Assembly (NCBI GenBank): GCA_039588295.1
Contig: JBDHAB010000018.1
Coordinates: 1-64,000 of the forward strand
Source: Gemmatimonadota bacterium
Lineage (GTDB): Bacteria > Gemmatimonadota > Gemmatimonadetes > Gemmatimonadales > GWC2-71-9
DNA: 64,000 bases
Direction of reading: 5' to 3'
Shown here: in pieces, positions 14,950 through 62,125 of the stretch
Numbering within the stretch: position 1 is the stretch's first letter
Layout of the letters: each line of letters starts with the position of its first letter
Translations under genes and position numbers: made by a program
The notes under the pieces: generated by a model
What the model saw: only the letters and a program-made list of their open reading frames with translations
Databases searched by the model: none
Told to the model about the DNA's origin: nothing

Positions 14950-17337
14950 ATGCGGCGTCTGCTGCTGTTCGCCGCACTGAGCACTTTGCTGGCTCCCGGG
15001 CTTGGGGCCCAGGAGGCCCCGGCGCAGGCGATCGCGGTCGACAGCGTCGCGATTGAAGGCGTCCGTCGGGTCACGCCCGAGACGGTCGTCAACGCCGCTG
15101 CCATCCCGCTTGGCGAGCCGATCGGGTTCCGCAACCTCCAGCGCGCCATGAACGCCGTGTTCGCCCTGGGGCAGTTCGACGATATCCGGTTCGAGCAAGG
15201 GCGGTTCGGCGGGAGAGAGATCCTCCGCATCGTGGTGGTGGAACGGCCACTCCTCACGGGCTGGGCGGTACAGGGCGTCGAGAACCTGTCCCAACGCAAG
15301 GTCCGCGGGAAGGTCAGCCTGCTGTCGGGCCGACCCCTGGATCGCGCCATGGCAGCCAGATCGCGAGCCGCCATCGATTCGCTGTACCAGGAAGACGGCT
15401 ATTACCTGACCGAGGTGTTCATCCATGAGCTCCCCCAGCCGGATGGCACAGTCCAGCTCGTGTTCGAGGTCGACGAGGGGCGGCGGGTGAAAATCAGTCA
15501 GGTCGCGATCGACGAGAACGAGCACTTCACCGACGCTGAGATCGTCGGCGCCATGCGCAGCAAGCCTGAGGGATTCTGGTGGTTCCGGCGCGGCGATTTC
15601 AACGATGACGAGCTGCAGCTCGACATCCGCGACCGGATTCCGCGGTTCTACGCCTCACGCGGCTTCATCGACTTTCAGGTCGCCGACGATTCACTCCTCG
15701 TGGATGAGGAATCGGGCAAGGGTACACTCCTCCTCACCGTGCGCGAAGGTGAGCGGTACGACGTCGGAACCTTCGAGATCGTCGGCAATCGCTTCTTCCC
15801 CTCGGGTCAGCTGGAGCGCTATTACCCCTTCGCTACTCGAACGACCGGCTTTCTCGGATTGGGGGGAACCAGCCAGGAGATCCAGGTCTTCAATCAGGAG
15901 AAGTGGGACGACGCGACCCAGCAGATTCGCACCCTCTACGCGAACAGCGGATACATCTACGCGCAGATTGCCGGGACGACCTCGCGACGACGAACGGAGG
16001 ATGGACGCAACGTCGTCGATCTGCGGTGGCAGATCGTCGAGCGGCAACCGGCAGTCGTGAACAAGGTCGTCATTCGCGGGAACGACGTCACGCACGAGGA
16101 CGTGATCCGGCGGGCCATCGTCGTGATACCGGGCGACGTGATGCGACAGGACGCGCTGATCAAATCGTACCAGAGCATCTCCAACCTCGGGTTCTTCGAG
16201 CAGCCACTCCCGGTTCCGACGACCGAGCAGGCCAATCAGCAAGGTGATGTAGACGTCGTGTTCACGGTGCAGGAGCGACACACCGGCAACATCAACTTCG
16301 GAGCCTCGGTTGGGCAGGGGACCGGCCTCGGCGGCTTCATCGGACTCGACGAGCCCAACCTGTTCGGGCGCGCCAAGCGGGTCTCCCTGCAGTGGCAGTT
16401 CGGCCGCAACATCAACAACTTCAACATCTCCTACACGGATCCGGCGCTCAAGGGAAGCCTCATCTCCGGAACGGTCTCACTGCACAACTCCCGGCTGCGG
16501 TACACGGTCGCCGATCTTGGCCGCATCACGTCCCGTGGCGGCAGCATCCAAATCGGGCTTCCGTTCAGGGGCTCGCGCTACACCCGCTTGTTTGCTTCGT
16601 ATTCACTGGAGCAGAGCGACTTCGACTCCCCGACGCTGACATCCCGGTTCCTGTGTGATAACTGCGTGTTGTCGAGCGCGTCTCTCTCGCTCGCGCGCGA
16701 TACCCGCATCGATCTCCCGTTCCCGACCGGTGGAGCCCTGCATCGGCTGACCGTGGCGCAAGGCGGCGGCCCCCTCGGCGGCAGCGGGAATTTCCGACGG
16801 GCGACGTTCGAGGGCCGATGGTACACGCCCCTCACCTCACTGGGGTCGGACGACCCGTTGAGCAGCCCAATGAAGATCCTGCTCGGGCTCGGCGCGAACG
16901 CAGGATTCGTCTGGGGGGACGTGGGGCCGCACTTCCGACAGCTGTTTTCGATGGGCGGAACGCAGTTCGGCATTCCGCTTCGCGGGTACGAGGAGTTCTC
17001 GATCACACCGGGCGGATTCGATCCGCTGTCGAGTGGTCAGCAGGCTAGCACCGTCGACGCGTTCGGTGCGTCGTACCTGGCGCTCACCGCAGAAGTCGGA
17101 CTGAGGGTGAGTCAGGCCATTTACCTCAGTACGTTTATGGATGCCGGAAACGTGTGGGACTCTCCGGGGCACTTCAATCCGACACGACTGTTCCGCGGCG
17201 CCGGTGTTGGCGTGAGTCTCGTCACACCGCTCGGCCCGATTGGACTCGACTACGCCTATGGGTTCGATCGACTCGATCTCCTGGGCGATCCGGACCCAGG
17301 GTGGAAGTTCCATTTCAAGATTGGCAATTTCTTCTAG
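14950..17337 (+). CDS. bamA: Outer membrane protein assembly factor BamA
   Basis: Signal peptide, POTRA repeats, NLFG, LRGY, TPLGPIGLDY, C-terminal Phe. Confidence 0.95.
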   Translation: MRRLLLFAALSTLLAPGLGAQEAPAQAIAVDSVAIEGVRRVTPETVVNAAAIPLGEPIGFRNLQRAMNAVFALGQFDDIRFEQGRFGGREILRIVVVERPLLTGWAVQGVENLSQRKVRGKVSLLSGRPLDRAMAARSRAAIDSLYQEDGYYLTEVFIHELPQPDGTVQLVFEVDEGRRVKISQVAIDENEHFTDAEIVGAMRSKPEGFWWFRRGDFNDDELQLDIRDRIPRFYASRGFIDFQVADDSLLVDEESGKGTLLLTVREGERYDVGTFEIVGNRFFPSGQLERYYPFATRTTGFLGLGGTSQEIQVFNQEKWDDATQQIRTLYANSGYIYAQIAGTTSRRRTEDGRNVVDLRWQIVERQPAVVNKVVIRGNDVTHEDVIRRAIVVIPGDVMRQDALIKSYQSISNLGFFEQPLPVPTTEQANQQGDVDVVFTVQERHTGNINFGASVGQGTGLGGFIGLDEPNLFGRAKRVSLQWQFGRNINNFNISYTDPALKGSLISGTVSLHNSRLRYTVADLGRITSRGGSIQIGLPFRGSRYTRLFASYSLEQSDFDSPTLTSRFLCDNCVLSSASLSLARDTRIDLPFPTGGALHRLTVAQGGGPLGGSGNFRRATFEGRWYTPLTSLGSDDPLSSPMKILLGLGANAGFVWGDVGPHFRQLFSMGGTQFGIPLRGYEEFSITPGGFDPLSSGQQASTVDAFGASYLALTAEVGLRVSQAIYLSTFMDAGNVWDSPGHFNPTRLFRGAGVGVSLVTPLGPIGLDYAYGFDRLDLLGDPDPGWKFHFKIGNFF

Positions 17338-17361
17338 CTCAACTCCAGCAGGATTGTGACT

Positions 17362-17919
17362 ATGTCCGTTGATCGTAAGAAGGCTCGCGTTGCACTGGTG
17401 GCGCTTGGAGTGATTTTGGTCGTGGGCGTGGCGGCGATTCCAGCACCACAGCCGCAGAACACCGTTCGCTATGCCTATGTGAGCTCCGAGCTCATTCTTC
17501 GGCAGACCCCCGGGTTTGCACAGGCAGAGTCGACGCTCACCGCCGAGATCGCCAGCTATCGTGGAGAGGTTCAGAGACTGCAGCAAGTCCTGGACTCGGC
17601 CATCACTGCATTCAATCAGCAGTCCATCGTGCTGACACCGACCGCGCGGTCGGAGAAGACAGACGAGCTGCGCTCGCTGCAGCAGCAGCTGGAGAATCGG
17701 ACCACGGAGCTGCAGACCCGCGCCCAGGAGCGGCAGCGCGAGCTCGTGAGCCCGCTCGAGGATCGGATTCAACGGGTCATCGATGGCCTGCGGGCTGAGC
17801 GAAATCTCTCGCTGATTTTTGACGTCTCAGCGCCCGGGAACAACATCGTCTCCGCCGACCCGGTGCTGGACCTGACGGGGACGGTCGTGCGCCGGCTCCA
17901 AGGCGCCTCCGGGCCGTAG
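17362..17919 (+). CDS. skp: OmpH/Skp periplasmic chaperone
   Basis: YAYVS, coiled coil, LSLIFD...DLTGTV; located after bamA. Confidence 0.88.
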   Translation: MSVDRKKARVALVALGVILVVGVAAIPAPQPQNTVRYAYVSSELILRQTPGFAQAESTLTAEIASYRGEVQRLQQVLDSAITAFNQQSIVLTPTARSEKTDELRSLQQQLENRTTELQTRAQERQRELVSPLEDRIQRVIDGLRAERNLSLIFDVSAPGNNIVSADPVLDLTGTVVRRLQGASGP

Positions 17920-17926
17920 CGGCGGA

Positions 17927-18961: not shown

Positions 18962-20222
18962 ACGCACCGTCGGGCGAGAAGCCTCCGTGCGCGGCACCGG
19001 ACTGCACACGGGAGCCCACGCGACGGTCACGCTGAAACCTGGAACGAGCGGTACCGGCATTGTCTTCCGTCGGACCGACCTCCCGGACCGGCCGGAGATT
19101 CCGGCGCGGCTGAGCGCCCTGGGCCACGCCGACCGCCGAACCTGCCTCGGCACAGGCGAGCATTCGGTGAGCACCGTCGAGCATCTGCTGGCTGCGGCCG
19201 CGGCGCACGGGATCGACGATCTCTTGATCGAGGTCGACGGCCCCGAAGTGCCGATCGGCGACGGCAGCGCCGCGTCGTTCGTTCGCGCCCTCGAGGAGGC
19301 CGGAACAAGCGAGCTGGACGGGACACCGGCACAGATCGCCGTCACGAGCCCGATCGTCGTGCGGGATGGGGACGCGAGGTACCACGTCGCGCCGAGCGAC
19401 GAGCTGCGGCTCACGGTCACCATCGAGTGGGATCACCCCCTCATTGGGCGTCAGAGCGGCTGCTACGATGTGACGCGCGCGCAGTTCCTCTCGGAACTTG
19501 CCAATGCTCGGACGTTCGGGTTCCGCAGCGAAGAGCGCACGCTGCGCGACCAGGGCCTCATTCAAGGAGCGTCGCCAGACAACACGATCATTCTTTCGGA
19601 CGAGAAGGCGGAAGTTGACCTGCGATGGCCCGATGAGTTCGTACGGCACAAGGCGGTCGACGTACTGGGCGATCTCGCATTGCTCGGCGGGCGGCTCTCA
19701 GCCGAGGTCGTGGCGTTCCGGCCGAGTCACGCCGGGAACGTGGCCGTTGCACGCGCGATCGAACGCACCACCACACGGAACGCGCCTCCCGTGATGGGCA
19801 TCCAGGAGATCCTCGGCGTGCTTCCCCATCGCTACCCCTTCCTCCTCGTGGACCGGATCCTCGAGATCGAGACGGGCAAGCGGATCATCGGACTCAAGAA
19901 CGTCACGATGAACGAGCCATTCTTCCCCGGTCACTTCCCGGACCACCCGGTCATGCCCGGCGTACTCATCGTCGAGGCGATGGCGCAAACGGGCGGCATG
20001 CTGTTGTTGGGACAGGTGGACGACCCGGAGGGCAAGGTCGTGTACTTCATGTCCATCGACGGCGTCAAGTTCCGCAAACCTGTCATCCCCGGCGACCAGC
20101 TTCGGTTCGAACTGGAGATGCTCAAGTTTCGGGGCAAGACATGTCGCATGCGTGGAGTCGCCTACGTTGATGGACAACCTGTGGCGGAAGCAGAAATGAT
20201 GGCCGCAATCGTCGATCGATGA
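18948..20222 (+). CDS. lpxC/fabZ: Bifunctional LpxC deacetylase / FabZ dehydratase
   Basis: [50 protein letters not shown]. Confidence 0.95.
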
Positions 20223-23734: not shown

Positions 23735-23768
23735 GCGGCATCGCGGACCACATCCTCTCGATACGACA

Positions 23769-47664: not shown

Positions 47665-48390
47665 CTAGAGGCGCCTGAAGATCGCCTGGAGCCGCAGCCG
47701 CCAGACCATCCAAACGGCTTCCCGGATGATTGCGCCAGACATTTTGCTCTCTCCCTCGGTGCGATCCACGAATACGATCGGTATTTCCTTGATGCGAAAG
47801 CCTTTGCGGGCGGCCCGCAAGCTCATTTCGATCTGGAAGGCATAGCCATTGGAGTGAACGGCCTCCAGGTCAATCGCCTCGAGAACTCGGCGTCGATAGC
47901 ATTTGAACCCGCCGGTAGAGTCGCAGACCTTGAGCCCCGTAATCACCCGGGCGTAGATATTGGCACAGTAACTCAGCAACAGCCGCGGCATGGGCCAGTT
48001 CACGACCGTCACACGCCCGTCCAGATAACGCGACCCCAGCACCAGGTCCGCATCGGCCGCGGCCTGCAGGAACTCTGGGAGATGCTTGGGGTCGTGCGAG
48101 AAATCCGCGTCCATTTCAAAGACGAATTCGTAGTCGCGGTCCAGCGCCCAGCGAAATCCCGCCCGGTACGCGGTGCCAAGACCCAACTTCCCCTCTCGAT
48201 GCAGCACATGAACGCGTGGCTCCCCGGCGGCGACCTCGTCGGCCAGCCGCCCGGTACCGTCCGGCGAGTTGTCGTCCACGATGAGGACCTCGATACGCTC
48301 GTCCTGCTCGAGTACCAGCGGCAGGATCTGCTGGAGGTTCCTCGCCTCGTTGTAGGTCGGGATGATGACCAGTGCCTTATCGTCAGGCAC
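47665..48390 (-). CDS. Polyprenol monophosphomannose synthase-like GT2 (DPM1/Ppm1 type)
   Basis: IIPTYNE, VDDNSPDGTG, KLGLGTAY, EMDADFSHDP, GSRY, SNGYAFQIEM. Confidence 0.9.
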   Translation of the reverse strand: MPDDKALVIIPTYNEARNLQQILPLVLEQDERIEVLIVDDNSPDGTGRLADEVAAGEPRVHVLHREGKLGLGTAYRAGFRWALDRDYEFVFEMDADFSHDPKHLPEFLQAAADADLVLGSRYLDGRVTVVNWPMPRLLLSYCANIYARVITGLKVCDSTGGFKCYRRRVLEAIDLEAVHSNGYAFQIEMSLRAARKGFRIKEIPIVFVDRTEGESKMSGAIIREAVWMVWRLRLQAIFRRL

Positions 48391-50770
48391 GTCGGCTCCG
48401 GGTCAGCGGTGGTCCAATGAGGACGGCCACAAGGACGATGAGGGACAGCCAAGTGATGAAACGTCCCCGCGTATAGGCCGAGCTTCGGAAGTCGAGCGTG
48501 ACCTGTTCCGCACCTGCGGAGACCGGAACGGTGATGATCGACACGTTGCCTCGCACTACCTGGGCTTCCACACCATCCACGGTTGCAGACCAGTCCGGGT
48601 ACCAGTTCTCACCGACCACCAGATACCCGTCCTCGGGAGCCTCGGGAGAGATGCGGAGGCGCATCGCACCCGGCTCCCAAGCCTCGACCACCACGTCAAC
48701 ATCGAACGGCTCGGGCATCGCGCTCACTGGCACCGGCTCGTGGCTCGACTCGGGATCGATCAGCACGAGACGGTCCGGGTCGAGATCGGACCGCGGGTTC
48801 GCCAGCGCCGGGATGGCTTCGGCGTCGGAGAGCTTCAGCGCGGCCGGCACGAGGCGGGCCCACCGCACGCCGTCACTCCGCTCGTACAAGTCGGCTGAAC
48901 GGCCCGACCCAATCGCCACATCACGCAGCACCCGGTCGAAGCCGGGGATCCCCTGCTCGACCACGAGCCCCGCGGGAACCACAACGAACCGCACGGCATA
49001 GAGATCCCACAGGTTGCGGCTGCCGACATTCCTCCACTCGTTCTTCCCGCCGAGCAACTCGTCGAATCGGTGCAACTCGTTGCCATGGTATCCGAGCACC
49101 TGCGGCACGCCGTGCGCCATGAGGGTGTTGCCGGGGTAGACCTCGGCCCTGGGGATCTGAAGCACACGGTACGGCCCGGCCGTCGAACGGAGATGCTCGA
49201 TGATCGCGTCATCACTGAGCAGTTCCTGCTCGATCGGAGTGAACGTCCAGAACGGCTTGGCGTTGAGCCAGAGGTCGGCTCCGATGACGAGGGGCGTCAC
49301 CACCGCGAAGGCGAGCACCGGGATGATCTCTCGTTTCAACGCCGCCGCGAGGGCCGCCAGCACGACGAGCGCAACACCGCTGAGGACAGCCCCCAATCGT
49401 ATCGCGCCCTGCGCGGCGTCGGCAGCGGCGACTGGGCGTCCCCCAGCCCCCTGAACATCGAGTGCCAGGAACCGCGCGAACCCGCCGACGGCACCCAACG
49501 CTGCGAGCAGCACCACGACCCCACCCGCCGCGAACCAAACACCAACATGGCGCTTCCCTTCGCCCCGCTCCAAACGCTGCACGCCGAACCCCGCGAACGC
49601 GGACACGGCGAAGGCCACCACGAACAGCGCCATGCCTGGCGCTCGCACCTTCTTCATGAATGGCATGACCTCGTACCATGCCCGGTAAAAGGGGGTCGCG
49701 GCACCCTGTGCGATGAGTAGGAACAGAAGCCCGATCGCAGACAGCCACACGACAAGACGGCGCCTCCTGGGATCGGCCAGGCCAAGAACCGACAGCGCCA
49801 CGACGGGAAGCCCCAGGTACTCCGAGTGAAGCTTGATTGGATTGCTCGCCCAATACGTCCCGTCCTGCGACGTGCCAAGGAAGCCGGCCAGGAACAGCTC
49901 CGGGATGTGCGACCAGGGAATGGCGTAGGACGTCGCTTCCTCGAAACCCCGATAGGTCTCCGCCCGCGGCGAGTAAGGGAGATACTCGTAGAACGGCAGG
50001 ACCTGAATCATGCCGATGCCGAAGCCCAACAAGACCGCCGCCAGCGCGGCACCGAGCTGCCCCACAGCCACCCTTCGGGTCGGCGCGCTCTCATCTCCGA
50101 ATGCGAGGTAGAGTGCGAAGATGCCGGCGGCAACCAGCAAGTAGTAGAGCATCTGCGGATGCGGGCTCAGCACGCCGAGTCCGACGGTCAACGCGAGGAG
50201 CGCATGGCCTGCAAGCCGCTGTCGCCTGAACGCCAGGACGAGCGCGATGCATGCCAGCGGCAGCAGTGCCGTCACAAACAGCTTCCCGTCGTGGCCCGGC
50301 TGCACGTACGAGCCGATGACGCCGGACAGTTGGTACGCGAGGGCCCCCGTGACTGATCCTGCCCAGGAGCACTTGAGCAGCCGAAGCAGGAGATACAGGA
50401 AGAGGCCGGCAAGGGCGTAGTGCACGATGAACCCGAGGTTCATCGCGAGCCCGACTGGCAGCACGAGGCGCAGCCACGCGGTGGGATAGAAGATGTCGCC
50501 ATGCATGGCGCCGGCAAACGGGAGGCCGCCAAAGATCTCGGGATTCCACAGGGGAAAGTGTCCGAGCGTCCGCCACTGATCGACGGCCCATTGCCGGACC
50601 GCGAACCCGCTCGAGTACTGATCGCTCCAGGGGCCGGCGAGAAACTCTCCGGTCCACATGGGAAGCGAGAGCAAGGCGATCCACACGCTCAACAGACCGA
50701 CGGCACTGAGCGTTGGCCACCGTGGCTCGAACGACGACTCCGTGAGCCGCTCACGTCCGTTCTCAGACAC
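48383..50770 (-). CDS. YfhO family integral-membrane glycosyltransferase (GT-C fold)
   Basis: DQ loop, PLWNPEIFGGLPF, FYP, GHDGK, many TM helices, C-terminal ENWYPDWSATVDG; GTG start inferred. Confidence 0.85.
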   Translation of the reverse strand: MSENGRERLTESSFEPRWPTLSAVGLLSVWIALLSLPMWTGEFLAGPWSDQYSSGFAVRQWAVDQWRTLGHFPLWNPEIFGGLPFAGAMHGDIFYPTAWLRLVLPVGLAMNLGFIVHYALAGLFLYLLLRLLKCSWAGSVTGALAYQLSGVIGSYVQPGHDGKLFVTALLPLACIALVLAFRRQRLAGHALLALTVGLGVLSPHPQMLYYLLVAAGIFALYLAFGDESAPTRRVAVGQLGAALAAVLLGFGIGMIQVLPFYEYLPYSPRAETYRGFEEATSYAIPWSHIPELFLAGFLGTSQDGTYWASNPIKLHSEYLGLPVVALSVLGLADPRRRRLVVWLSAIGLLFLLIAQGAATPFYRAWYEVMPFMKKVRAPGMALFVVAFAVSAFAGFGVQRLERGEGKRHVGVWFAAGGVVVLLAALGAVGGFARFLALDVQGAGGRPVAAADAAQGAIRLGAVLSGVALVVLAALAAALKREIIPVLAFAVVTPLVIGADLWLNAKPFWTFTPIEQELLSDDAIIEHLRSTAGPYRVLQIPRAEVYPGNTLMAHGVPQVLGYHGNELHRFDELLGGKNEWRNVGSRNLWDLYAVRFVVVPAGLVVEQGIPGFDRVLRDVAIGSGRSADLYERSDGVRWARLVPAALKLSDAEAIPALANPRSDLDPDRLVLIDPESSHEPVPVSAMPEPFDVDVVVEAWEPGAMRLRISPEAPEDGYLVVGENWYPDWSATVDGVEAQVVRGNVSIITVPVSAGAEQVTLDFRSSAYTRGRFITWLSLIVLVAVLIGPPLTRSRRA

Positions 50771-51689
50771 CGGTCGTCTCCTTCGCCCCAGCCCGACTCG
50801 CGACGGCAAGGGCCGCGACTCCGACCTCCATGACCGTCAGGAACAAGCGGGACGCCACGCTCAGGACCACGGCTCCGCCCGCTCCCACAATCGGGGTCAG
50901 CACCGTGGCCAGCACCGCCTCCCGCACTCCCAGGCCGCCCGGAGCGAACAGCGCGAGCAGGCCGAGAACGTATCCCGCCGCGAACGTCGCAATGGCCGTC
51001 GACATCGCCAGCGACGTACCGGCGAGGACACCCCTCGAGACGAGCCAGAAGGAGACGCCGTGCGTGACCCAGCTGGCAAGCGTCGCTCCCCCAGCGAGGA
51101 GCGCGGTCCCGAGCGGCAACCCGCGCGCCTCGGCACCACCCCCGAGAAGGCGCATCAATCGGGCACCCGCGGGCTCCCACACCAGGACCCCCACCACGCC
51201 CGCCGTGAGGAGCGCAGCGGCCACGGTGGCCCACAACGTGCTTTCCCGCGGCAGCCCGGACGCCATGACGGCCGCTCCCGTACCCACGGCGAGTGCTTGC
51301 ATCGCGAGTCCCGACGCGGTCGCGGTCCCGGCACGCACTCCGGCGCGCCGCGCGAGAGCCACGAGGCCAGCCACCGTCCAGATCTTCCCCGGAATGTACC
51401 GTCCGAGGTTCGACACCGTCCAAATGTACCCCGCGTCGCGATAGGACAGACGCTCACCCCACCCAAGGATGACCCGCCGCCACGCTTCGATGAGGAAACC
51501 GTAGGTGACGAGCGTCGTGAGCGCCGCCAACGCGATCGGACCGGGGCGGATCGTCACGTCAGCGTTCAGCGCGCGAAACTCCTCCCAATGTGTGAGGAGC
51601 GCTCGCCCAACGAAGGCGAACAACACGATGGCCAGCCCGGCCTGGAGAGCCCAGACGACTCCGCGACGCAACGTCGACCGATCGTTCAT
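50763..51689 (-). CDS. Lysylphosphatidylglycerol-synthase TM domain (flippase-like) protein
   Basis: SNLGRYIPGKIW, APGGLGVRE, multiple TM helices. Confidence 0.82.
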   Translation of the reverse strand: MNDRSTLRRGVVWALQAGLAIVLFAFVGRALLTHWEEFRALNADVTIRPGPIALAALTTLVTYGFLIEAWRRVILGWGERLSYRDAGYIWTVSNLGRYIPGKIWTVAGLVALARRAGVRAGTATASGLAMQALAVGTGAAVMASGLPRESTLWATVAAALLTAGVVGVLVWEPAGARLMRLLGGGAEARGLPLGTALLAGGATLASWVTHGVSFWLVSRGVLAGTSLAMSTAIATFAAGYVLGLLALFAPGGLGVREAVLATVLTPIVGAGGAVVLSVASRLFLTVMEVGVAALAVASRAGAKETTGV

Positions 51690-52870
51690 CCGTCCGAGTC
51701 CCCTGCCCTCTGGTCAACGACCCTTCCGTAAATCTCGGCATACCGTTGCGCGACCGCCCTCGGTGCGAAGCGCTCGAGCGCGTGACGCCGCCCGCTCCGC
51801 CCGAGCCCCGCACCGCGATCCGGGAGACCGAGCACCGCATCGAGTGCCATGGCGAGCGCAGCGTGATCACCCGGTTGCACCAAGTGACCGGTCTCCCCTT
51901 CGACGACGACATCCGGTAGCCCCCCGGACGCAAACGCCACCACCGGCGTTTCGCACAGCTGCGCTTCGATCGCCACGAGGCTCAATCCTTCGTCCACCGA
52001 AGGCATCGCAAGGACGGTCGCGCGCCGGTACAGCTTCGCCAGTTGATCCTGGGGGAGCAACGGATGCCAGCGCACTCTTTCGGCGATACCCAGGTCCCGG
52101 GCGAGTTGACGAGCGGGCTCCTCGCTGCTGCCCACCCCGACCACCACATCGAGCGTGCAGGGGTGGCGCATCACCGCCAGGGCTCGCAACAGATGGTGGA
52201 TGCCCTTCTGAGCATTGAGCTTCCCCACGAACAGCGTCCGATTGTCCGATGCGCGGTCATCGGGTGGGTCGAACAGCGCGGGAACGATCGGCATTGGCGC
52301 AACGACCGGCCGCACGTCCGGCACCGCTGCCGTCGTCTCTCGAGCCAACCAAGTCGAAACCGCGGTGACGACCGATGATCTACGCATCACGTGCCGGAAC
52401 ACCTTCCGTGCAAGCCCGTGCCCTGCGACCACCCGGATGTCTGACCCGTGGAGAGTGGTGACCAGCGGCACGCTCCGCACGCTCCTGAGAACGGTACCGA
52501 CCACCCCGCCCGGGAACCACCAGTGCGCGTGCACCACCGAGGGCCGAAGCCGCCGGGAGACTCTCCCTGCCCGTACGACCTCGGCAGTGAAGAGGCTCGC
52601 AATCGCAAGCCGAGCCTTCCAAGAGCTCTGTACCTGTTGCGCCATCGTGCCGTCGTAGGCCAACGTCTCGAACCGACGAGGCGCATAGCGGAACCGCTCC
52701 ACGGGGATACCCTCGAACTCGTCTTGCGGGCGCAGACCCTCACCGGCCGGCGCAATGACCGTGGACTCGATTCCCTCATCGCGCAACGCGACGGCCAAAC
52801 GAAGCACGAACGAGCCGACAGGATCTCCCTCGTAGCGGGGGAATGAATGCGCGAGGACGAGGACTCTCAC
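51686..52870 (-). CDS. Glycosyltransferase family 4
   Basis: SFPR, HAHW, TLHGSD, FVGKL..QKG, EGLSLVAIEA, GGLPDVV. Confidence 0.9.
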   Translation of the reverse strand: MRVLVLAHSFPRYEGDPVGSFVLRLAVALRDEGIESTVIAPAGEGLRPQDEFEGIPVERFRYAPRRFETLAYDGTMAQQVQSSWKARLAIASLFTAEVVRAGRVSRRLRPSVVHAHWWFPGGVVGTVLRSVRSVPLVTTLHGSDIRVVAGHGLARKVFRHVMRRSSVVTAVSTWLARETTAAVPDVRPVVAPMPIVPALFDPPDDRASDNRTLFVGKLNAQKGIHHLLRALAVMRHPCTLDVVVGVGSSEEPARQLARDLGIAERVRWHPLLPQDQLAKLYRRATVLAMPSVDEGLSLVAIEAQLCETPVVAFASGGLPDVVVEGETGHLVQPGDHAALAMALDAVLGLPDRGAGLGRSGRRHALERFAPRAVAQRYAEIYGRVVDQRAGDSDG

Positions 52871-54333
52871 GACGGCCTCCTCTCCTCGCTCGGCTCGACC
52901 GTCTGGACGACTCGACCTTCAGCATCTTCGATCTGGACGGGGTGCGCTGGCCGCTCCTCAACCCGGACATCCAGCCGGCCGTCTGTCCGCAGCCCCGCAG
53001 CGCGAAGCGAACGGCGACTTCGGCGCCATGCCGTCAGGACCGTCAGCGTTGAGACGAAGGGATCCTCCGCAAGGAGCGCATCGAGAAGCACATCATACGC
53101 GGCTGGCGCTCCCGGAAAACCCAGGGCGGGCGCCATATTGGGGTGCCACACACCGACCCAGGCTCCCTCGACACTCCGACATGCCTCTGCGAGCGTTCGC
53201 CCATCATTGACCCAGGCGGTTGGATCCTCGATCCCCTGGTACTTGCTCTGCGCCCGGTCCATCCACATGAGCGGGACCTCGTCCAGATCAGTCGTCTGTT
53301 CCGCCGCTACGTCCCACCCTGGTACCACGTCCGCAACACCAAGCCGAAACCCGTTTCGGTCGGGAAACCCATAGGTCGCATCGTACGCGAAGCCCGCATC
53401 GGCGATTCCTCGTTGCGTGCGTCCGGGGTTCATACGCACGTAATGCTGTCGAACCCCAGAAACCGGCTTTCCGACAATGTGCTCGAGCCGCGCACGCTGC
53501 TCGACGAACCGCTCGGGACGCTCGAGGGTCTCGAAGCTGCCATGCAACCCGATCTCGTGGCCGCCGTGGGCAACGTCTGTCACGATGGCCGAGGCTCTTC
53601 GCCCCTCCGGCCGATAGGTCAGGTCACCGGCACGCATCGTGGCCACGGTTGGTGAGCCGCACAGCACGAACCATGTTGAAGCGATGCCGCGGTCCGCCTC
53701 GCCCGCGAGGAGGTTCCTTGCCGCGCGTCCAACCGGATCTCGGCCGACGGCCGCCACTGCGGCCCCGAGGACGCGAGCCGCGAGCCCGAGTCGACCCCTG
53801 CGCGCCAGCTCCTGCAGGCGCAGTACGGTAAACACCCCCCAATGGTCTACCACGTCCAGGTCGTGCGTGACGGCGGCGGCCCAGCGCTTGCCGTTTGGCC
53901 ACGGCGCCGCGAGGCGCACGGGCCGGCGACCTGCCGCTGCCAGTACTGTCTTTCGGAGGGTCGCCCCCGCAATCGAGATGACAGGATCCCGCTCGAGCCC
54001 CGCTTCGACGAGCGGGTTTGCCAACGACGGTACGCGTCCGTGGCGGTCTCGGTCCGTTGACCGCTGCTCCACGGCCGCACCCGCCACATCCACCACCGTC
54101 GCCAGTGCACCGCGAGGGACACGCACGACACCGTCGCCAGGTTCCAAGAACCAGTCGTGGGCAACACAGGCACGCAGGTGTCCGGCCCGCTCGTCTCCGT
54201 CCACGACGGTGAGTCGCACGGCGTCCTCGAGCACATCATCCGCGGGAATGAGACGGGCGAGATCGGTCAGCAGAAGCAGCGCGAACCACTCCGCTTCGCT
54301 GAGGCGATCATCGCGCGACGGGAGGCGGAGCAA
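52867..54333 (-). CDS. Polysaccharide deacetylase-like (NodB/CE4 superfamily) protein
   Basis: THDLD, EIGLHGS, RQHY, YDATYG, GFRLG, WH motifs. Confidence 0.8.
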   Translation of the reverse strand: MLRLPSRDDRLSEAEWFALLLLTDLARLIPADDVLEDAVRLTVVDGDERAGHLRACVAHDWFLEPGDGVVRVPRGALATVVDVAGAAVEQRSTDRDRHGRVPSLANPLVEAGLERDPVISIAGATLRKTVLAAAGRRPVRLAAPWPNGKRWAAAVTHDLDVVDHWGVFTVLRLQELARRGRLGLAARVLGAAVAAVGRDPVGRAARNLLAGEADRGIASTWFVLCGSPTVATMRAGDLTYRPEGRRASAIVTDVAHGGHEIGLHGSFETLERPERFVEQRARLEHIVGKPVSGVRQHYVRMNPGRTQRGIADAGFAYDATYGFPDRNGFRLGVADVVPGWDVAAEQTTDLDEVPLMWMDRAQSKYQGIEDPTAWVNDGRTLAEACRSVEGAWVGVWHPNMAPALGFPGAPAAYDVLLDALLAEDPFVSTLTVLTAWRRSRRSLRAAGLRTDGRLDVRVEERPAHPVQIEDAEGRVVQTVEPSEERRPS

Positions 54334-55628: not shown

Positions 55629-55669
55629 GCGAGGGGCGCGGCGCCCACCTTCCTGATACGCTGAGCGGC

Positions 55670-57154
55670 CTACCAGGCCAACACGTCCACCCATCCGGCC
55701 TCGTTGGCCACCACGACCGTCTTGCCGTCGCTGCTGAAGTCGATCCGGCGCGGACTGCCACCGGTGTCGATCACACCGAGCGTTGCGCGGCTGGTCCGAT
55801 CCACGACCACCACGGCCCCGCGGGACGGCACGCCTGCGACGAGGTGCAAACCGTCTGGCGACAGCGCGATGTCGAAGACCCCGTGATCGAGGGAAACCGA
55901 TTCCGTGACCGTTCCCGACGCCACGCTCAGGATCGCGATGCGCGACCCGCTCTCGTCGGCTACGTAAAGCTCGGCCCCATCGGCGGCGATAGCGAGTCCT
56001 TGCGGCGCGCCACCAACAACAAGCGTGCGGAGCACCGTCAGCGAGCTGGTGGAAACCTCATGCACCGTTCCACTAAACGCCGCCGATACGTAGGCCAGGG
56101 GTTGAGACGGATGGAACACGACGTCGTTCGGGGCCCAGCCCACGGGTATTCGCTCTACCACCGTCATGGTTCCCACGTCGATGACCGCTACGTCGTCCGC
56201 GTTGGTGGTCACAAACAGTCGCAGGTCACCAGGCTCCACACTGACGGTGAACGGATCTGCTGAGACAGGTACGGTCGCCGTCTGGGTCGCCGTCGCGACG
56301 TCGATGAAGCCGACATTCTGGCTGTGCTGATTCGTCACGTAGGCCTTGGTACCGATCGAGTTGAACGCGACTCCCGTCGCGGTGAAGCCTACCGTCGGTC
56401 CATCGGCGAACGCGTACGAAGGGAGTTGCGTCGTACCCAATGCCGTCACATCGAGTCTGGCGACGTACACGAGATCGGATAGCGAAACTGCCACGCCGAA
56501 CGGTCGGGCGCTCAACGACGGACTCGCAACGATGGCGTTAACCGCCACCACCGCAGCCGCGGAAAGCGCCTCGTAGCGCGCAACGATTCGTGTAGATCCG
56601 TGGATCCCGACAGCTGTGATGACGCCGAGCGACGACACGTTCACCAACAACGAGTCCTCGCTCTCAAAGGTGATGGGAATGCCCGGCACGGAATCCCCAT
56701 TGAGATCGACCGCTACTGCGACGAGTTGGGTACTCTCCCCGCGGCGCAACACGACCGACGCCGGAGACAACTGGATGGTCTGCGGTGGTGGCTGGACGAC
56801 GACGGGAATGGCGCGCTGTGGACCGTCCGGCACCCGCGCGGTGATCGCTGCCGTGTCGGCGCGCGTGGCCTCAGCGGTTACCACACCTCCGGGCGTGACG
56901 GTGGCCACGGTCGTGTCGCTCGTGAAGTACTCGACGGGAGTGCCCGGGAGGTGTCGGCCTTGTTGGTCGAGCACCCGAACGGTGAGCGCCAGAAATTCAC
57001 CCGGCTCGAGCAGGAGGGACTCGGGGAGGACTTCTAATGATGTGGGCCGAGCCGGTGCGAGCCCATCGCTTGAGCACGCAACCCAGCCCACCACCCCTAC
57101 GGCCACCAGTACCTCGAGGAATCGCCGGGCTGGGACCATCTGCCACGTGGCCAT
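55670..57154 (-). CDS. Lipoprotein with two Ig-like (Big_2) domains and YVTN/YncE beta-propeller
   Basis: Lipobox WVAC, TSDTTVATV Ig motif, AYVTN and repeated P.g(v/i)a.s.dg blades. Confidence 0.8.
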   Translation of the reverse strand: MATWQMVPARRFLEVLVAVGVVGWVACSSDGLAPARPTSLEVLPESLLLEPGEFLALTVRVLDQQGRHLPGTPVEYFTSDTTVATVTPGGVVTAEATRADTAAITARVPDGPQRAIPVVVQPPPQTIQLSPASVVLRRGESTQLVAVAVDLNGDSVPGIPITFESEDSLLVNVSSLGVITAVGIHGSTRIVARYEALSAAAVVAVNAIVASPSLSARPFGVAVSLSDLVYVARLDVTALGTTQLPSYAFADGPTVGFTATGVAFNSIGTKAYVTNQHSQNVGFIDVATATQTATVPVSADPFTVSVEPGDLRLFVTTNADDVAVIDVGTMTVVERIPVGWAPNDVVFHPSQPLAYVSAAFSGTVHEVSTSSLTVLRTLVVGGAPQGLAIAADGAELYVADESGSRIAILSVASGTVTESVSLDHGVFDIALSPDGLHLVAGVPSRGAVVVVDRTSRATLGVIDTGGSPRRIDFSSDGKTVVVANEAGWVDVLAW

Positions 57155-57256: not shown

Positions 57257-58216
57257 CTACTGTTCCCGTCGCAACTCGCCCAGCAGGTCCTCGAGAGTGC
57301 GATTCAGTGCCCGCAATTCCTCGCGTGCTCCGGCGACGATCTCACCGACGAAGCCAAAACCGAAGAGTGCCACGCCGGTGATCACCAGCACCATGACCAG
57401 GTCGAGGAGCGGGCGGAATCCAATGTTATATCCGAACCGCAGGATCAGTGCGACGACACCGACGAGCAGGCCGATCGCGAACAGAATCCCACCGGACAGG
57501 CCGAAGAACAGAAGAGGCTTGCGCCCGAAGCGCAGCTGGAACCAGACGGACATGAGATCGATCACTCCGACCGGGATTCGACCCAGCCCGAACTTGGATT
57601 TGCCTGCCTCACGCGGCATCAGCGTTACCGGGCGTTCGGAAACGCGAAACCCGTCAGCCGCCGCGATCACGACCATGAACCGGTGCCAATCCGGCCGTGC
57701 AGGCACGACACCCATCACTTCTCGTCGATACGCTTTGACGGCGTTCAGATCGCTCACCCGGATGCCAAAGAGCAGCCGACAGAGACGGTTGTAGACCCCG
57801 GACACGAACGCCTTTTGGTACTCGCCCTGCTTCGTACCGGTCACGATGTCCGCCTCGCCCGCCCGAATGGGCTCGACAAGCTGCGGAATGTCGGATGGGA
57901 GAAACTGCAGGTCGGCAGGATAGAACACGAAGATCGAACCACTCGCGAGCTCACCGGCCGTCCGCAATGCGTCGGCGATTCCGCGCCGAGACCGATGCCG
58001 TGCTGCTCGAAGAAATGGATACTGTGCCCGGAGGTCTCGCAACACGGTCGGCGTGTCGTCCTGACTGCCGTCATCCACTACGACCACTTCACACGCGTAG
58101 GGTAGGTCGCGGAGCGTTTCGGCACACTGGCGCACGAATTCGGGGAGACTCTCACTCTCGTCCGCTGCGGGTACGAGGACACTGAGTTCCGCCGTCTCCC
58201 CCGCGGCCCAGGTCAT
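57257..58216 (-). CDS. Glycosyltransferase family 2 with C-terminal TM helices (GtrB/ArnC-like)
   Basis: VVDDGSQDDT, PADLQF, WHRFM, REAGKSKF, two C-terminal TM helices. Confidence 0.87.
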   Translation of the reverse strand: MTWAAGETAELSVLVPAADESESLPEFVRQCAETLRDLPYACEVVVVDDGSQDDTPTVLRDLRAQYPFLRAARHRSRRGIADALRTAGELASGSIFVFYPADLQFLPSDIPQLVEPIRAGEADIVTGTKQGEYQKAFVSGVYNRLCRLLFGIRVSDLNAVKAYRREVMGVVPARPDWHRFMVVIAAADGFRVSERPVTLMPREAGKSKFGLGRIPVGVIDLMSVWFQLRFGRKPLLFFGLSGGILFAIGLLVGVVALILRFGYNIGFRPLLDLVMVLVITGVALFGFGFVGEIVAGAREELRALNRTLEDLLGELRREQ

Positions 58217-59685
58217 ACGCGTTTGCGCATCCGCGCCGGCAAAATGCCGAGCTGCTCTCGATACTTGGCGACCGTACGACGCGCGATTTGGATGCCGCGC
58301 CGCTTCAGGGCGCTCACGATGGCAGCGTCCGTCATCGGTCGCGCGGCATCCTCCTCCGCGACCAGCTTACTGATCTGGGCTTTGACCGCACGCGAGCTCG
58401 CGTCTTCTCCAGTGGTCGTACTCACGCTGCTGGAGAAGAAGAACTTGAGCGGATACACGCCGCGGGGTGTCTGCACGTACTTCCGACTCGTGACACGACT
58501 CACCGTCGACTCGTGGAGGTCCAGCACCTCCGCCACTTCACGCAACGTCAGCGGGCGCAGATACTCGACGCCCTTCTCGAAGAACTCCCGCTGACGGTCT
58601 ACGATGAAATGCATGACCTTGAGCATCGTTTGCCGCCGTTGCTCGATCGCCTGAATCAACCAGCTCGCACTGTTCAGCTTCTGCGTGATGAACTCACGGT
58701 TCTCGCCGACAAAGCGTGACTTGTCCCTCGCGAGGTCGCGGTAGACCTTGCTGATCCGCAGGCGCGGCATGCCACCATCATTGAGCGAGATACGATAATC
58801 CCCATCCGGATTGTCGACCACGAGGTCGGGCACGACGTACTCATCGGCCTTCCCCGCAAAACGCAATCCCGGTTTCGGATCCAGCCGGGCGAGTTCGTCC
58901 GCGGCGTTTTGAACATCCTTCGGCGCGAGGCCGTAGCGTTTGGCGAGTTCCGTCCAGCGGTGCCCGATGAGGTCGTCGAACGCTTCGCTGACGAGTCGGT
59001 AGACGAGTGTCTCCTGCTGACCCTCGTCCTCCAACTGCAGCAACAAACACTCGCGTAGATCGCGGGCCCCGACGCCCGCAGGGTCGAGGCGCTGGATCAC
59101 CGCGAGCATCGCAACCGCCTCTTCGAGGGTGAAGGGCTCGTCGAGCGGTCCGGGCGTCCCGGGCTCCTCGTCCTTGCGCGACGTCGCCGCCGCCCGTGCT
59201 AACTCTTCCTCACGGCGCTCATCCGCGCCGGCGAGAATCTCCTCGAGCGACGCGCGGAGATAGCCGTCTTCCGCCGTATTGCCGATGAACTCTTCGCCCA
59301 GAAACAGCTGCCGCTCCGTGATTGTCAGCAGCTGAAGCTGGCTCCGCAGATGATCGCTGAGGTCTGAGATCTCCACGGCCACGGGTTCGTAGTATTCCTT
59401 ATGTTCATACTCCTGGCGGGCTCCCCCGACCGAGAAACCATCGAGGAGGATGTCCTCCCAGTCTACCTCGTCCTTCTCCTCCGCAGATTCCGTCTCCTTG
59501 CTGTCCGTCACGTCCGAGTCATCACCCTCGGCCAACTCGAGGAACGGATTGATCTCGAATTCCGTTTTGAGGTGCTGCTGGAGATCGAGCAACGGCATGT
59601 ACAGCAAATCCATCGCCTGGTACAGGCGGGGATTCATCCTCAGTTCCTGCTTGAGAATCGGGCTCTGTTGCAGGGACGTCTTCAT
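58213..59685 (-). CDS. rpoN: RNA polymerase sigma-54 factor
   Basis: DPAGVGARDLRECL, HESTVSR, RpoN box ARRTVAKYRE. Confidence 0.97.
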   Translation of the reverse strand: MKTSLQQSPILKQELRMNPRLYQAMDLLYMPLLDLQQHLKTEFEINPFLELAEGDDSDVTDSKETESAEEKDEVDWEDILLDGFSVGGARQEYEHKEYYEPVAVEISDLSDHLRSQLQLLTITERQLFLGEEFIGNTAEDGYLRASLEEILAGADERREEELARAAATSRKDEEPGTPGPLDEPFTLEEAVAMLAVIQRLDPAGVGARDLRECLLLQLEDEGQQETLVYRLVSEAFDDLIGHRWTELAKRYGLAPKDVQNAADELARLDPKPGLRFAGKADEYVVPDLVVDNPDGDYRISLNDGGMPRLRISKVYRDLARDKSRFVGENREFITQKLNSASWLIQAIEQRRQTMLKVMHFIVDRQREFFEKGVEYLRPLTLREVAEVLDLHESTVSRVTSRKYVQTPRGVYPLKFFFSSSVSTTTGEDASSRAVKAQISKLVAEEDAARPMTDAAIVSALKRRGIQIARRTVAKYREQLGILPARMRKRV

Positions 59686-60860
59686 GCCACGGCTCCCAAC
59701 CGTTCGCGCAACCGGCTCGTGAGCGTCGGTCCGAGGTAGAGATCGGCCACCTGTTCGTTGAACACTAGCTCACGCACGGTCCCGGCCACCTCGACCTTAC
59801 CCTCGAACATGATGTATGCTCGATCTACGATGTCCAGGGTCTGCTCGACGTTGTGATCCGTAATCAATACCCCGATACCACGACGTCTGAGCCCCGCGAC
59901 GATCGTCTGAATGTCGCTCACCGCGATGGGATCCACGCCCGTGAACGGCTCATCGAGCAGCAGAAACTTGGGTTCGGTCACGAGCGCGCGTGTAATCTCG
60001 AGCCTGCGGCGCTCACCACCCGACAGCTTGAACGCGCGGGTCTTCCGCAGGTGCGATATCGAGAGGTCATCGAGCAACGACTCGAGACGCGCACGACGCT
60101 GCTTGTCCGGGATTGGGAGCGACTCGAGGATCGCCATCACGTTGTCTTCGACCGTGAGCTTTCGGAAGACCGACGGTTCCTGGGCGAGGTACCCGATACC
60201 CCGGCGGGCACGTTTGTACATCGGAAGCGTCGAGATGTCCTCGTCATCGAGATAGATTCGGCCCAATTCCGGGCGCACGAGGCCAACGATCATGTAGAAG
60301 GTGGTCGTCTTGCCAGCTCCGTTCGGCCCCAGCAATCCCACGATCTCTCCTTCGCGAACCTCAAGATCGACTTCGTTGACCACGCGCCTGCGCCGATACG
60401 TTTTGACGAGCCCCCGGGCACCGAGCGTTCGTTCTCCCAACGGCACCGGCTCACCGACGCTTTCTGTTGCTCGCACGGCCTCCACCGCGAGCTCGATCAG
60501 TTGGCGACGCTGCGCCTCCTTCTCCACAACCAGGCCCGACCACACGTCCGGTGCAAACGCGATGGGGGTCGCGTCCAGCAGCGGATCCGGCACCGGCTGC
60601 ACGATGCTCTCTCCCTCAATCCGCGGCAACACCGACGTCTTGAGGTGACGTCGCACCTCGTCCACCGACAGCGCGCCGCGTTGTCGGGCAGCTTCACCCC
60701 ACTCGATCCGCTGGACCTCGAGATAGTGCTCACGATAGGCCACGGCCAGATCGCCGAAGCTCGCCGCACCATCGTCGCCCGCCGCCTGGAGCAACGCCGC
60801 AACGGCGATCGGGAGCGAGGGATCCTTCCCGGTCAGCGCGATCTGCAGACGCTCAATCAA
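59682..60860 (-). CDS. lptB: LPS export ABC ATPase LptB with ~145-aa N-terminal extension
   Basis: GLLGPNGAGKTTTFY, YLAQEPSVF, LSGGERRRLEI, DEPFTGVDPI, ITDHNV, YLG. Confidence 0.93.
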   Translation of the reverse strand: MIERLQIALTGKDPSLPIAVAALLQAAGDDGAASFGDLAVAYREHYLEVQRIEWGEAARQRGALSVDEVRRHLKTSVLPRIEGESIVQPVPDPLLDATPIAFAPDVWSGLVVEKEAQRRQLIELAVEAVRATESVGEPVPLGERTLGARGLVKTYRRRRVVNEVDLEVREGEIVGLLGPNGAGKTTTFYMIVGLVRPELGRIYLDDEDISTLPMYKRARRGIGYLAQEPSVFRKLTVEDNVMAILESLPIPDKQRRARLESLLDDLSISHLRKTRAFKLSGGERRRLEITRALVTEPKFLLLDEPFTGVDPIAVSDIQTIVAGLRRRGIGVLITDHNVEQTLDIVDRAYIMFEGKVEVAGTVRELVFNEQVADLYLGPTLTSRLRERLGAVA

Positions 60861-62125
60861 GGACGGCGCCTCCCGACTGGCTCCAAGTACACGCCATCGG
60901 CCTGTTCGACAATATTCACCCGATCCAACTCCTCATTCTCGAACCACGCCGTGATGCGCTTTCCCCGAGCATAGTTGATGGCCGGCGGCCCCACCTCGCC
61001 CTCTTGCGCGTAGACATGATAGAGCGCCTGCGCGTTGCCGTGCGCTTGCAGCATCACGAGTACCCGCCTTCCGGTCTCCGAGCTGTCGAACCGTGCCACC
61101 AGCGTATCACCCCCGATCCAATCCGCACCAGCCGACAAGGAATCCGTCGCTGACGTCGCCCTCGTAGCGCCAAACGCGCGCACTTCGGCGAGCAGCTGGT
61201 CCGGCGCATCGATCGCCAATGAATCTCCTTCAATCGTCTGCGATGCCGACACCGCCCGCGCACGCGTGGAATCACCCCACACGGCTCCACCCTGCAGCCG
61301 GTCATGTGCGATGTTGAACTCGATGGTGTCCCCCCGTGCCTCCCACTCAGCGCTGGTCGCTTCCGCCTGCCGCTGCGCTTGTACCCAGTGGAGCTCGCCG
61401 TCGAGCAGGCGAAAGGCAATGCGCTTCCCGCGAATCGTGTATCCCGTGGAATCCCGTCCCGCCGCCTCCGCATTGCCTATCAGCAGGCCCTCACCGACGT
61501 CCATATTCAGGGCGGCACTGTCACCGCGTGCCGCGAAGTCTTCCCGATCGATGGTCACCGCTCCACCGGCCCACGCCAACCCGTCACCTTTCAGACGCAC
61601 GCGATCGCCGTTGATGACATAGGGCTCCTCCTGCGGAGCTTCCCGCCGCCGATATTCCACCATCGGCCGCTCGGTCGCGTACAGCTCCGACGTGTCCCGA
61701 ATCCCAGGCGCAATCCGGTAATAGGTGAGATTGGTGCCGGTCAGCACCGACCCCGTGCTTTCGTCCACCAACCGAACGTTCCCGAGAGCGTTCAGGCGCT
61801 CCACGTTTGGGAAGTACCGCGCCCGGTCCGACTCCAGCCGAGTGGTCGAATCCCGAAACCGCACAACACCCTCGAAGTCCATCCGCCCAAGATCCTGATA
61901 CCACGCTACGCTATCGGCGCGAATGGTCGTGGGTTGCCCGATGCACCGGGCCAACACCCCACCGCTCCAGAACGCGCGAAAGCGCCCGGTTCCCACTCGG
62001 ATCCGCCGGACCGCACCACCTTCAACGAGCTCGGGCCGGCACGAGCCGCCGATCTGTGCCGTGCCTGGCTCGGGGGTCGCAGCCACCACCATTAGCATCA
62101 CAACGCCAGCCACGAGTCGCCGCAC
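60857..62125 (-). CDS. lptA: Large OstA/LptA-like multi-jellyroll periplasmic protein
   Basis: Signal peptide, repeated beta-jellyroll motifs (ADSV, ALGNV), located between lptC and lptB. Confidence 0.75.
   Translation of the reverse strand: MRRLVAGVVMLMVVAATPEPGTAQIGGSCRPELVEGGAVRRIRVGTGRFRAFWSGGVLARCIGQPTTIRADSVAWYQDLGRMDFEGVVRFRDSTTRLESDRARYFPNVERLNALGNVRLVDESTGSVLTGTNLTYYRIAPGIRDTSELYATERPMVEYRRREAPQEEPYVINGDRVRLKGDGLAWAGGAVTIDREDFAARGDSAALNMDVGEGLLIGNAEAAGRDSTGYTIRGKRIAFRLLDGELHWVQAQRQAEATSAEWEARGDTIEFNIAHDRLQGGAVWGDSTRARAVSASQTIEGDSLAIDAPDQLLAEVRAFGATRATSATDSLSAGADWIGGDTLVARFDSSETGRRVLVMLQAHGNAQALYHVYAQEGEVGPPAINYARGKRITAWFENEELDRVNIVEQADGVYLEPVGRRRP

Follow-up and report, generated by a model that had tools for sequence, protein, structure and literature searches.

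Sequon-Bearing Proteins and a Glycosyltransferase Cluster in a Gemmatimonadota Contig

The DNA analyzed in this study (the window) comprises 64,000 nucleotides of contig JBDHAB010000018.1 from the Gemmatimonadota genome assembly GCA_039588295.1, and its exported proteins carry many copies of the motif D-(S/T)-(A/I/L/V/M/T), the sequon of protein O-glycosylation in Bacteroidota. A preliminary description of the window had proposed a similar general glycosylation system in this organism; the lineage it assigned agrees with the homologs, which are named by source as Gemmatimonadales/Gemmatimonadota. BamA (14950–17337, plus strand) contains three D-S-hydrophobic sequons, all in the POTRA region N-terminal of the barrel, which has none: D31-S-V (15040–15048, plus), D143-S-L (15376–15384, plus), and D247-S248-L249 (15688–15696, plus). 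Skp/OmpH (17362–17919, plus) has a single sequon, D78-S-A at 17593–17601, that is conserved across the phylum. Two exported TPR proteins with a weak FxLYD tail (33977–35374 and 36755–38380, both plus) carry five and eight sequons, respectively. On the minus strand, an Ig (Big_2)/beta-propeller lipoprotein (55670–57154) has two DS and two DT sequons, an LptA/OstA-like protein (60857–62125) seven DS and two DT sequons (DTI and DTL), and an LptC-like lipoprotein (62130–62666) two DT sequons. The earlier DS[AILVMT] counts for BamA, Skp, both TPR proteins, the Ig lipoprotein, and the LptA-like protein were all reproduced, as were the single hits in MarR, SurE, GpsA, LarC, and the GGDEF protein. ClpC, UvrC, LysS, BshC, RpoN, and Der contain no DS[AILVMT] over 3,369 aa (4.3 expected, P = 0.014), but three of these supposedly empty proteins do carry DT[AILVMT] (Der 3, UvrC 2, LysS 1). 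Over the whole window, the DS motif occurs 24 times against 4.8 expected in nine exported proteins, 7 times against 15.3 in 38 cytoplasmic proteins, and 3 times against 3.9 in nine membrane proteins.

The window also contains a gene cluster on the minus strand (47665–54333). A soluble Dpm1/Ppm1-like GT2 (47665–48390) is predicted to be a polyprenol-phosphate hexose synthase and is a candidate donor maker; its sole PDB match at 1e-10 is DPMS (5mlz, E = 9.5e-30), it reaches no NCBIfam cut-off, and its likely mannose specificity is a prediction. The overlapping gene encodes a YfhO-type GT-C membrane glycosyltransferase (48383–50770; PF09586, 39.1 bits vs. a cut-off of 28.5), a candidate transferase or ligase, whose predicted model (pLDDT 91) has a GT-C fold matching AftD (the best match), AglB, ArnT, PglB, and STT3. 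The cluster continues with a UPF0104/LPG_synthase_TM membrane protein (50763–51689) that may act as a lipid-sugar flippase, a GT4 glycosyltransferase (51686–52870), and a sugar deacetylase-like protein with a weak VimE match (52867–54333). A second GT2 (57257–58216, minus), ArnC/AglJ-like and membrane-anchored, is a possible second lipid-sugar synthase.

Genome-Wide Excess of the Motif in Exported Proteins

The 4.5-Mb source genome yielded 3,913 genes with our own gene caller, and proteins of at least 100 aa were sorted into classes by heuristic prediction of signal peptides and membrane helices. The 666 exported proteins contain 642 DS[AILVMT] motifs against 374.8 expected (observed/expected ratio, O/E, 1.71; 95% confidence interval, CI, 1.58–1.85), and the 1,871 cytoplasmic proteins 781 against 798.2 (0.98). 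Membrane proteins (755) and N-anchored proteins (126) give ratios of 1.45 and 1.65. The strong enrichment described for the window thus holds genome-wide, although the window overstates its size (approximately 5-fold vs. 1.7–1.9); the contig that carries it has an O/E of 4.46, the highest among the 30 contigs listed. Likewise, the cytoplasmic absence is confined to the window, as cytoplasmic proteins are not depleted in the genome as a whole.

The enrichment persists when exported and cytoplasmic proteins are compared across the proteome with control prefixes followed by the same third residues, none of which exceeds 1 in exported proteins (ES 0.83, SD 0.92, NS 0.89), and DS ranks first out of 341 two-residue prefixes of a hydrophobic residue by exported/cytoplasmic ratio. 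The ratio is 1.92 when each of 449 families is represented by one protein and 1.73 with per-protein expectations; 377 singleton exported proteins contain 319 motifs against 160.9 expected, and the excess remains (368/315.3) without the 60 proteins that contribute most. Of the 666 exported proteins, 414 have one or more D[ST] motifs. Third-position preferences are DSL 2.39, DSV 1.85, DST 1.62, DSI 1.51, and DSA 1.27, with charged residues, Pro, and Gln below 0.81, and this order resembles the L/I/V/T/A/S order reported for Bacteroidota (PMC12871550). The Thr half of the D-(S/T) motif is flat genome-wide (DT[AILVMT] 408/404.8 = 1.01), yet Thr is well represented at particular places, namely the far sides of kinases and the shared BamA site described below. 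Overall, the motif excess is real, smaller than the window implies, and Ser-biased.

Within the exported proteins of the source genome, motif density peaks just after the predicted point of cleavage, at 4.6 and 3.7 per 1,000 in the first 50 residues vs. approximately 2.3 later. A division into native and acquired genes is unsupported because codon-typicality quartiles display no monotonic trend (1.70, 2.35, 1.47, and 1.31).

Dependence on Membrane Side

Within a single chain, the excess varies with membrane side. In 24 Ser/Thr kinases with a single membrane helix, the far side contains 83 DS motifs against 17.5 expected and the kinase side 10 against 10.5; DT is also in excess on the far side (33/16.3). 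The DS excess is present individually in 20 out of 24 kinases, whose far sides fall into ten families, the largest with 11 members. The tails of 14 helix-less kinases show no such excess (7/7.8), and in 20 two-helix sensors the loop contains 17 DS motifs against 6.3 expected and the tail 11 against 9.0. In kinases and two-helix sensors, only the parts outside the inner membrane show the motif excess.

A BamA Sequon Shared with Bacteroidota

A set of 60 BamA sequences was compared, with one locus (L138) left out for want of a match. DS motifs in the POTRA region are in excess in the organism's own family (13 genomes, 44/7.7), five other Gemmatimonadetes (10/3.5), seven Bacteroidota (12/3.4), Ignavibacteria, Zixibacteria, and WOR-3 combined (10/1.8), and family f7 (14/4.6), compared with 1/3.2 in families f8 plus f9 and 1/8.7 in 14 genomes that are unassigned or lie outside the FCB group. 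The D31 column is common to 15 out of 60 orthologs, all within the class Gemmatimonadetes, and the D143 column to 16. The D247 column reads D-[S/T]-hydrophobic in 26 orthologs (14 Ser, 12 Thr): 19 out of 19 Gemmatimonadetes, five out of seven Bacteroidota, and the Ignavibacteria and Zixibacteria sequences, with none among the 14 non-FCB sequences or in the single WOR-3 sequence. In Porphyromonas gingivalis a BamA glycopeptide has been proven, with Ser280 as the glycosite (PMC8729774), and by-eye comparison of this peptide with the Parabacteroides BamA row at the D247 column finds 13 out of 17 residues identical. BamA D247-S248-L249 therefore aligns, by sequence, with a proven glycosite.

The BamA barrel displays the opposite pattern in some lineages, with DS counts of 0/5.5 in the own family and 0/3.4 in Bacteroidota against 9/4.7 in f7 and 14/8.7 in non-FCB genomes, as if motifs were counterselected where a glycan would hinder barrel folding. 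A crude beta-barrel flag applied genome-wide picked up no more than 15 proteins (23/15.7), which leaves BamA as the one protein for which barrel avoidance is shown. The Skp sequon was rejected as a homolog of the P. gingivalis site, as by eye it lies approximately ten residues before the Bacteroides-type site. A second Skp copy in family f7 (L007–L016) contains a variable low-complexity insertion rich in D-T/D-S motifs that resembles a glycosylated linker.

Conservation of the LptA-Like Sequons

Each of the nine sequons of the LptA-like protein is kept in 73–120 of 117–120 homologs, which are kin at 47–68% identity and in which some positions may also be structural. Over 120 homologs, Ser/Thr is retained at 0.92 at these sites compared with 0.55 for 35 other Ser/Thr, and the sequon Asp at 0.94 compared with 0.59 for 19 other Asp. 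As a sequence pattern, Asp is replaced by Glu in 1% of cases at sequons and in 12% elsewhere; Glu in place of the sequon Asp is reported not to be tolerated in Bacteroides fragilis (PMC12871550). Where the Asp is lost, the Ser/Thr is mostly lost too (kept in 3/24, 0/13, and 11/29). Ser/Thr occupies 1,186 out of 2,537 D-x-hydrophobic sites in the 120 homologs, compared with 9 out of 57 in 12 non-FCB LptA-type open reading frames (ORFs). A WOR-3 LptA-type ORF has Ser/Thr in 9 out of 12 such sites.

Distribution of the Motif Excess across Lineages

A pattern scan returned 37 named loci from several phyla; 33 of them served as genome handles, and comparison samples were 95–220 kb per genome. The exported DS ratio is 2.64 in Ignavibacteria (cytoplasmic 1.54; DT 2.44), 2.35 in a subsample of the source genome, 2.15 in G002, 1.97 in pooled small Bacteroidota loci, 1.78 in Parabacteroides, and 1.36 in Zixibacteria. 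Three non-FCB samples, Terriglobales (0.82), Acetobacteraceae (0.80), and Mesorhizobium (0.80), give 0.81 for exported and 0.71 for cytoplasmic proteins when pooled. The possibility raised earlier that homologs from other phyla would be equally enriched is thus contradicted by BamA POTRA regions, LptA-type ORFs, and exported samples alike. The strong loads in WOR-3, Zixibacteria, and Ignavibacteria suggest a wider occurrence of the trait within the FCB group.

Two genomes whose record titles read Bifidobacteriaceae (G218) and Clostridium (G229) were grouped as Bacteroidales, as they carry lptB and a DUF2723 that is sister to that of Parabacteroides, and G218 has BamA; both titles look wrong. 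The DUF2723 tree used for this placement retains 17 out of 22 rows (five lack the anchor motif), is midpoint-rooted, and has long branches; it also shows the DUF2723 protein of G226 to be divergent. G226, which has two YfhO-like genes and a Dpm1-like gene besides, is a possible natural control.

Candidate Glycosylation Genes

The source genome contains two copies of a TMEM260-like DUF2723 (PF11028) gene (C19:73591–76119 and C47:18433–20901). PF11028 was found in 200 out of 201 genomes of the phylum (of which one row, G155, is unpublished), and among 14 controls only in Bacteroides thetaiotaomicron; the exception within the phylum (G118) is a 280-contig assembly and was not used as a control. 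Of the 33 handles, 17 matched. Matches were strong in eight out of nine Bacteroidota and in Ignavibacteria, Zixibacteria, two Gemmatimonadaceae, and G226; WOR-3 and one cyanobacterial bin have a shorter form, and two Bdellovibrionota match faintly. The first 712 of 842 residues of the C19 copy match human TMEM260 (E = 4.9e-20), with D46 placed on the catalytic D52, a residue reported to be needed for activity (PMC10214176). The catalytic Asp is retained in both copies.

Searches with the window YfhO protein gave matches in 28 out of 45 genomes, including 17 out of 17 of the phylum, Zixibacteria, WOR-3, Ignavibacteria, and five out of eight Bacteroidota, with none in 14 others and none in G203, G204, and G225. 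The Pfam YfhO model was discarded for this purpose since it missed the source genome's own copy. The Dpm1-like synthase was detected in 23 out of 36 genomes, including all eight Bacteroidota and two Bdellovibrionota, a range that is nearly that of DUF2723. A close synthase homolog (at least 61% identity) lies within 1.5 kb of YfhO in 13 out of 30 YfhO loci. Both GT-C families, DUF2723 and YfhO, track the FCB group in this comparison.

The source genome further contains a ManC-like gene (C40:47359) that scores below the family cut-off, and two TMTC_DUF1736, five PMT_2 (one being the YfhO gene itself), and one Wzy_C matches. TMTC-like proteins were rejected as the general transferase as TMTC_DUF1736 occurs in one out of 31 genomes and cannot explain a class-wide signal. 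An island at C4:164771–188200 has genes for a number of membrane transferases of the TMTC/PMT-like type, for a GT2, and for a flippase-like protein; TMTC_DUF1736 is found in none of the 30 other genomes.

A Proposed General O-Glycosylation System and Its Alternatives

The D-S-hydrophobic motifs are probably glycosylated by a lipid-donor GT-C enzyme, and a general periplasmic O-glycosylation system that descends from an ancestor shared with Bacteroidota is likely, which supports the proposal of the preliminary description, with glycosylation itself deduced from sequence patterns. In such a system, the Dpm1-like GT2 (47665) would charge undecaprenyl phosphate with a hexose, probably mannose taken from GDP-mannose. 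The lipid-hexose would cross the inner membrane by means of a flippase, for which the UPF0104 protein (50763) is a possible candidate, and a GT-C enzyme would then attach the hexose to Ser, or less often to Thr, of D-S/T-[LVTIA] in proteins that exit Sec. The initiating transfer is provisionally assigned to the TMEM260-like DUF2723 proteins (C19 and C47), and the YfhO-type GT-C (48383) would extend or ligate further sugars. The two-step model of the Bacteroidota system requires an initiating transferase and a ligase, neither of which has an assigned gene after >15 years according to the accessible text of its descriptions (PMC12871550; 10.64898/2026.07.27.740950). Given glycosylation, DUF2723 has slightly better than even prospects of being the initiating enzyme, YfhO is a possible if rather unlikely candidate, and any other enzyme is improbable. 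Two arguments put DUF2723 first: its sole characterized relative acts as a protein O-mannosyltransferase, and P. gingivalis, a species that glycosylates proteins, has a DUF2723 gene (PGN_0192) on its essential-gene list (PMC3547785) and reportedly lacks YfhO.

A number of observations weigh against this interpretation. Regarding the genes, both DUF2723 copies lie among housekeeping genes (names read from sequence) and are unlinked to glycosylation genes, while YfhO overlaps the synthase; PGN_0192 does not appear in the accessible table of essential genes in common with B. thetaiotaomicron only (PMC3547785); and human TMEM260 is reported to serve a domain and not a D-S motif (PMC10214176). No wzx follows metG (C4:22148–23665), whose neighbors are a membrane-anchored ORF and AccA/DnaE-type genes (names read from sequence), and rmlC was not found in the genome, which is 96% complete. 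Regarding the motif, D-T is flat genome-wide although the preference for Ser in Bacteroidota is slight, signal peptides were assigned heuristically, and a positive-inside test applied to 328 multi-pass proteins gave no separation of the two sides (1.42 in, 1.32 out), probably as a result of poor orientation calls. Regarding lineages, all 17 BamAs from the other class of the phylum lack the D247 motif, though those genomes have DUF2723. Within the phylum, G012 gives 1.24 for exported and 1.34 for cytoplasmic proteins, and G059 gives 1.26 with a CI that includes 1. A Sphingobacterium positive control is flat (16/16.6 = 0.96), G218 reaches 1.05, and pooled Bacteroidota just 1.33 (cytoplasmic 0.97), so the motif statistic is a noisy marker in small samples. 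G226 has DUF2723, YfhO, and synthase genes but no excess (2/3.6 = 0.55; none in the BamA POTRA region), hence the gene set is not sufficient; together with families f8 and f9 it shows that gene possession is no guarantee of a visible motif excess. All genomes and homologs compared are kin and do not represent independent samples.

The likeliest alternative keeps the same glycosylation system but makes YfhO the initiating transferase, fed by the overlapping synthase and the flippase-like gene, with DUF2723 modifying something else. Gene order argues for it, both in the window and in the 13 out of 30 loci with a nearby synthase homolog, as do the occurrence of YfhO throughout the phylum and in other FCB lineages, with no match in 14 other genomes, and the presence of AglB, PglB, and STT3 among its fold matches. 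On the other hand, the best fold match, AftD, is a glycan-extending enzyme, the window query found no YfhO in three genomes, and the characterized Bacillus YfhO reportedly acts on lipoteichoic acid. A preprint of July 2026 predicts YfhO as the transferase and cites its essentiality, yet reports it absent from P. gingivalis (bioRxiv 10.64898/2026.07.27.740950), which has 145 reported O-glycoproteins (PMC8729774), although the Pfam YfhO model is insensitive. Taken together, this arrangement appears unlikely.

Selection for another periplasmic modification, such as a non-sugar adduct, or by another enzyme, such as a transferase of the TMTC, PMT_2, or PglL type, is quite improbable. The TMTC_DUF1736, PMT_2, and Wzy_C matches in the source genome and a Ser bias stronger than that of Bacteroidota would fit it, but PMT_2 and Wzy_C each occur in nine out of 14 controls, including Escherichia coli, TMTC_DUF1736 is too rare, and through the shared site in BamA the motif is linked to a glycan site already known. 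The absence of any modification, with the motif a structural preference of common envelope folds (helix N-cap, LptA jelly-roll beta-turn, TPR repeat) or the leftover of a lost system, is very improbable: turns of the D-x-hydrophobic type are indeed found repeatedly in all LptA proteins (with a single DS site in the LptA-type ORFs of both Mesorhizobium and Cocleimonas), a non-FCB BamA (L111) has D-S-T two columns ahead of the shared site, and even in the cytoplasm a hydrophobic residue is commoner after DS and DT (0.47 and 0.50) than after other Ser (0.39), but the same folds lack the excess in non-FCB genomes, the excess spans 449 families and depends on membrane side, and Ser/Thr disappears with Asp in LptA-like homologs.

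The preferred system, initiated by DUF2723, can be extended into a more tentative proposal, namely that D-S/T sequon O-glycosylation is ancestral to the FCB group and active in Gemmatimonadota, Ignavibacteria, Zixibacteria, and WOR-3, with a bacterial TMEM260 homolog as initiator fed by a Dpm1-like synthase and with YfhO as the outer-glycan ligase.

Other Features of the Window

LpxC and FabZ are apparently fused in a single ORF of 411 aa (18987–20222, plus; read from sequence), a fusion reportedly present in Bacteroidota. The LptB ORF (59682–60860, minus; 392 aa) has an N-terminal extension of approximately 140 residues ahead of the ATPase domain. A PorV/UPF0164-like outer-membrane barrel (2395–3378, plus), related to a type IX secretion component, contains no D-S/T motif. 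A release-factor-2-like ORF (6411–7403, plus) seems to begin without the usual N-terminus, possibly owing to a programmed frameshift upstream.

Comparison with Known Systems

The Bacteroidota system is described as unique to that phylum, with Fibrobacterota suggested, and a 2025 review places a high motif ratio across GTDB "mainly" in Bacteroidota, naming Fibrobacterota (PMC12871550). The accessible text of this review mentions neither Gemmatimonadota nor TMEM260, though its figure 2A may already include a Gemmatimonadota branch. In the literature searched, which covered few subscription journals, no report was found of an O-glycosylation sequon system in Gemmatimonadota or of the activity of a bacterial TMEM260 homolog. 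If true, the extension to Gemmatimonadota would imply a deeper origin of the system, and in a major soil and sediment phylum the Bam and Lpt machines at the core of the envelope would be glycoproteins, as would the sensor domains of Ser/Thr kinases. Two candidate enzymes emerge: YfhO, by its gene-order link with a lipid-sugar synthase, and DUF2723, for which the homology with TMEM260 points to a catalytic residue. Should the TMEM260 assignment hold, both empty slots of the two-step model would be filled and animal O-mannosylation would be tied to a bacterial pathway.

The window cluster resembles the Bacillus CsbB-GtcA-YfhO three-component system in that a lipid-sugar synthase, a flippase-like gene, and a YfhO-type GT-C adjoin, but here the host is diderm, the synthase is soluble and Dpm1-like, the flippase candidate is UPF0104 instead of GtcA-type, and the acceptor is possibly protein. 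With human TMEM260 (PDB 9rql; PMC10214176) the DUF2723 proteins share PF11028, a GT-C N-terminal module, the catalytic Asp (D46–D52), and a second C-terminal match; the human enzyme is reported to use Dol-P-Man on IPT domains of plexins, cMET, and RON, and the bacterial proteins are longer (822–842 vs. 707 aa) and present in two copies. Compared with O-glycosylation in Bacteroidota (B. fragilis, P. gingivalis, Tannerella forsythia, and Flavobacterium johnsoniae; PMC12871550, PMC8729774), the putative system belongs to another phylum and displays a genome-wide excess for Ser only. It has no metG-wzx (LFG) locus, which is reported not to be phylum-wide in Bacteroidota either (PMC12871550), and YfhO lies in an operon with the lipid-sugar synthase, an arrangement that none of five inspected Bacteroidota YfhO loci displays. 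With regard to the Bacteroidota core glycan, Man-(Me)Rha-GlcA, the genome has the Dpm1-like gene and the ManC-like gene below the cut-off, and no rmlC was found. The two nevertheless share the D-(S/T)-(A/I/L/V/M/T) motif with Leu and Val favored, its confinement to non-cytoplasmic regions, the DUF2723, YfhO-like, and Dpm1-like genes, and the same client classes (BamA, Skp, LptA/OstA, TPR proteins, and sensor kinases), including one homologous site in BamA.

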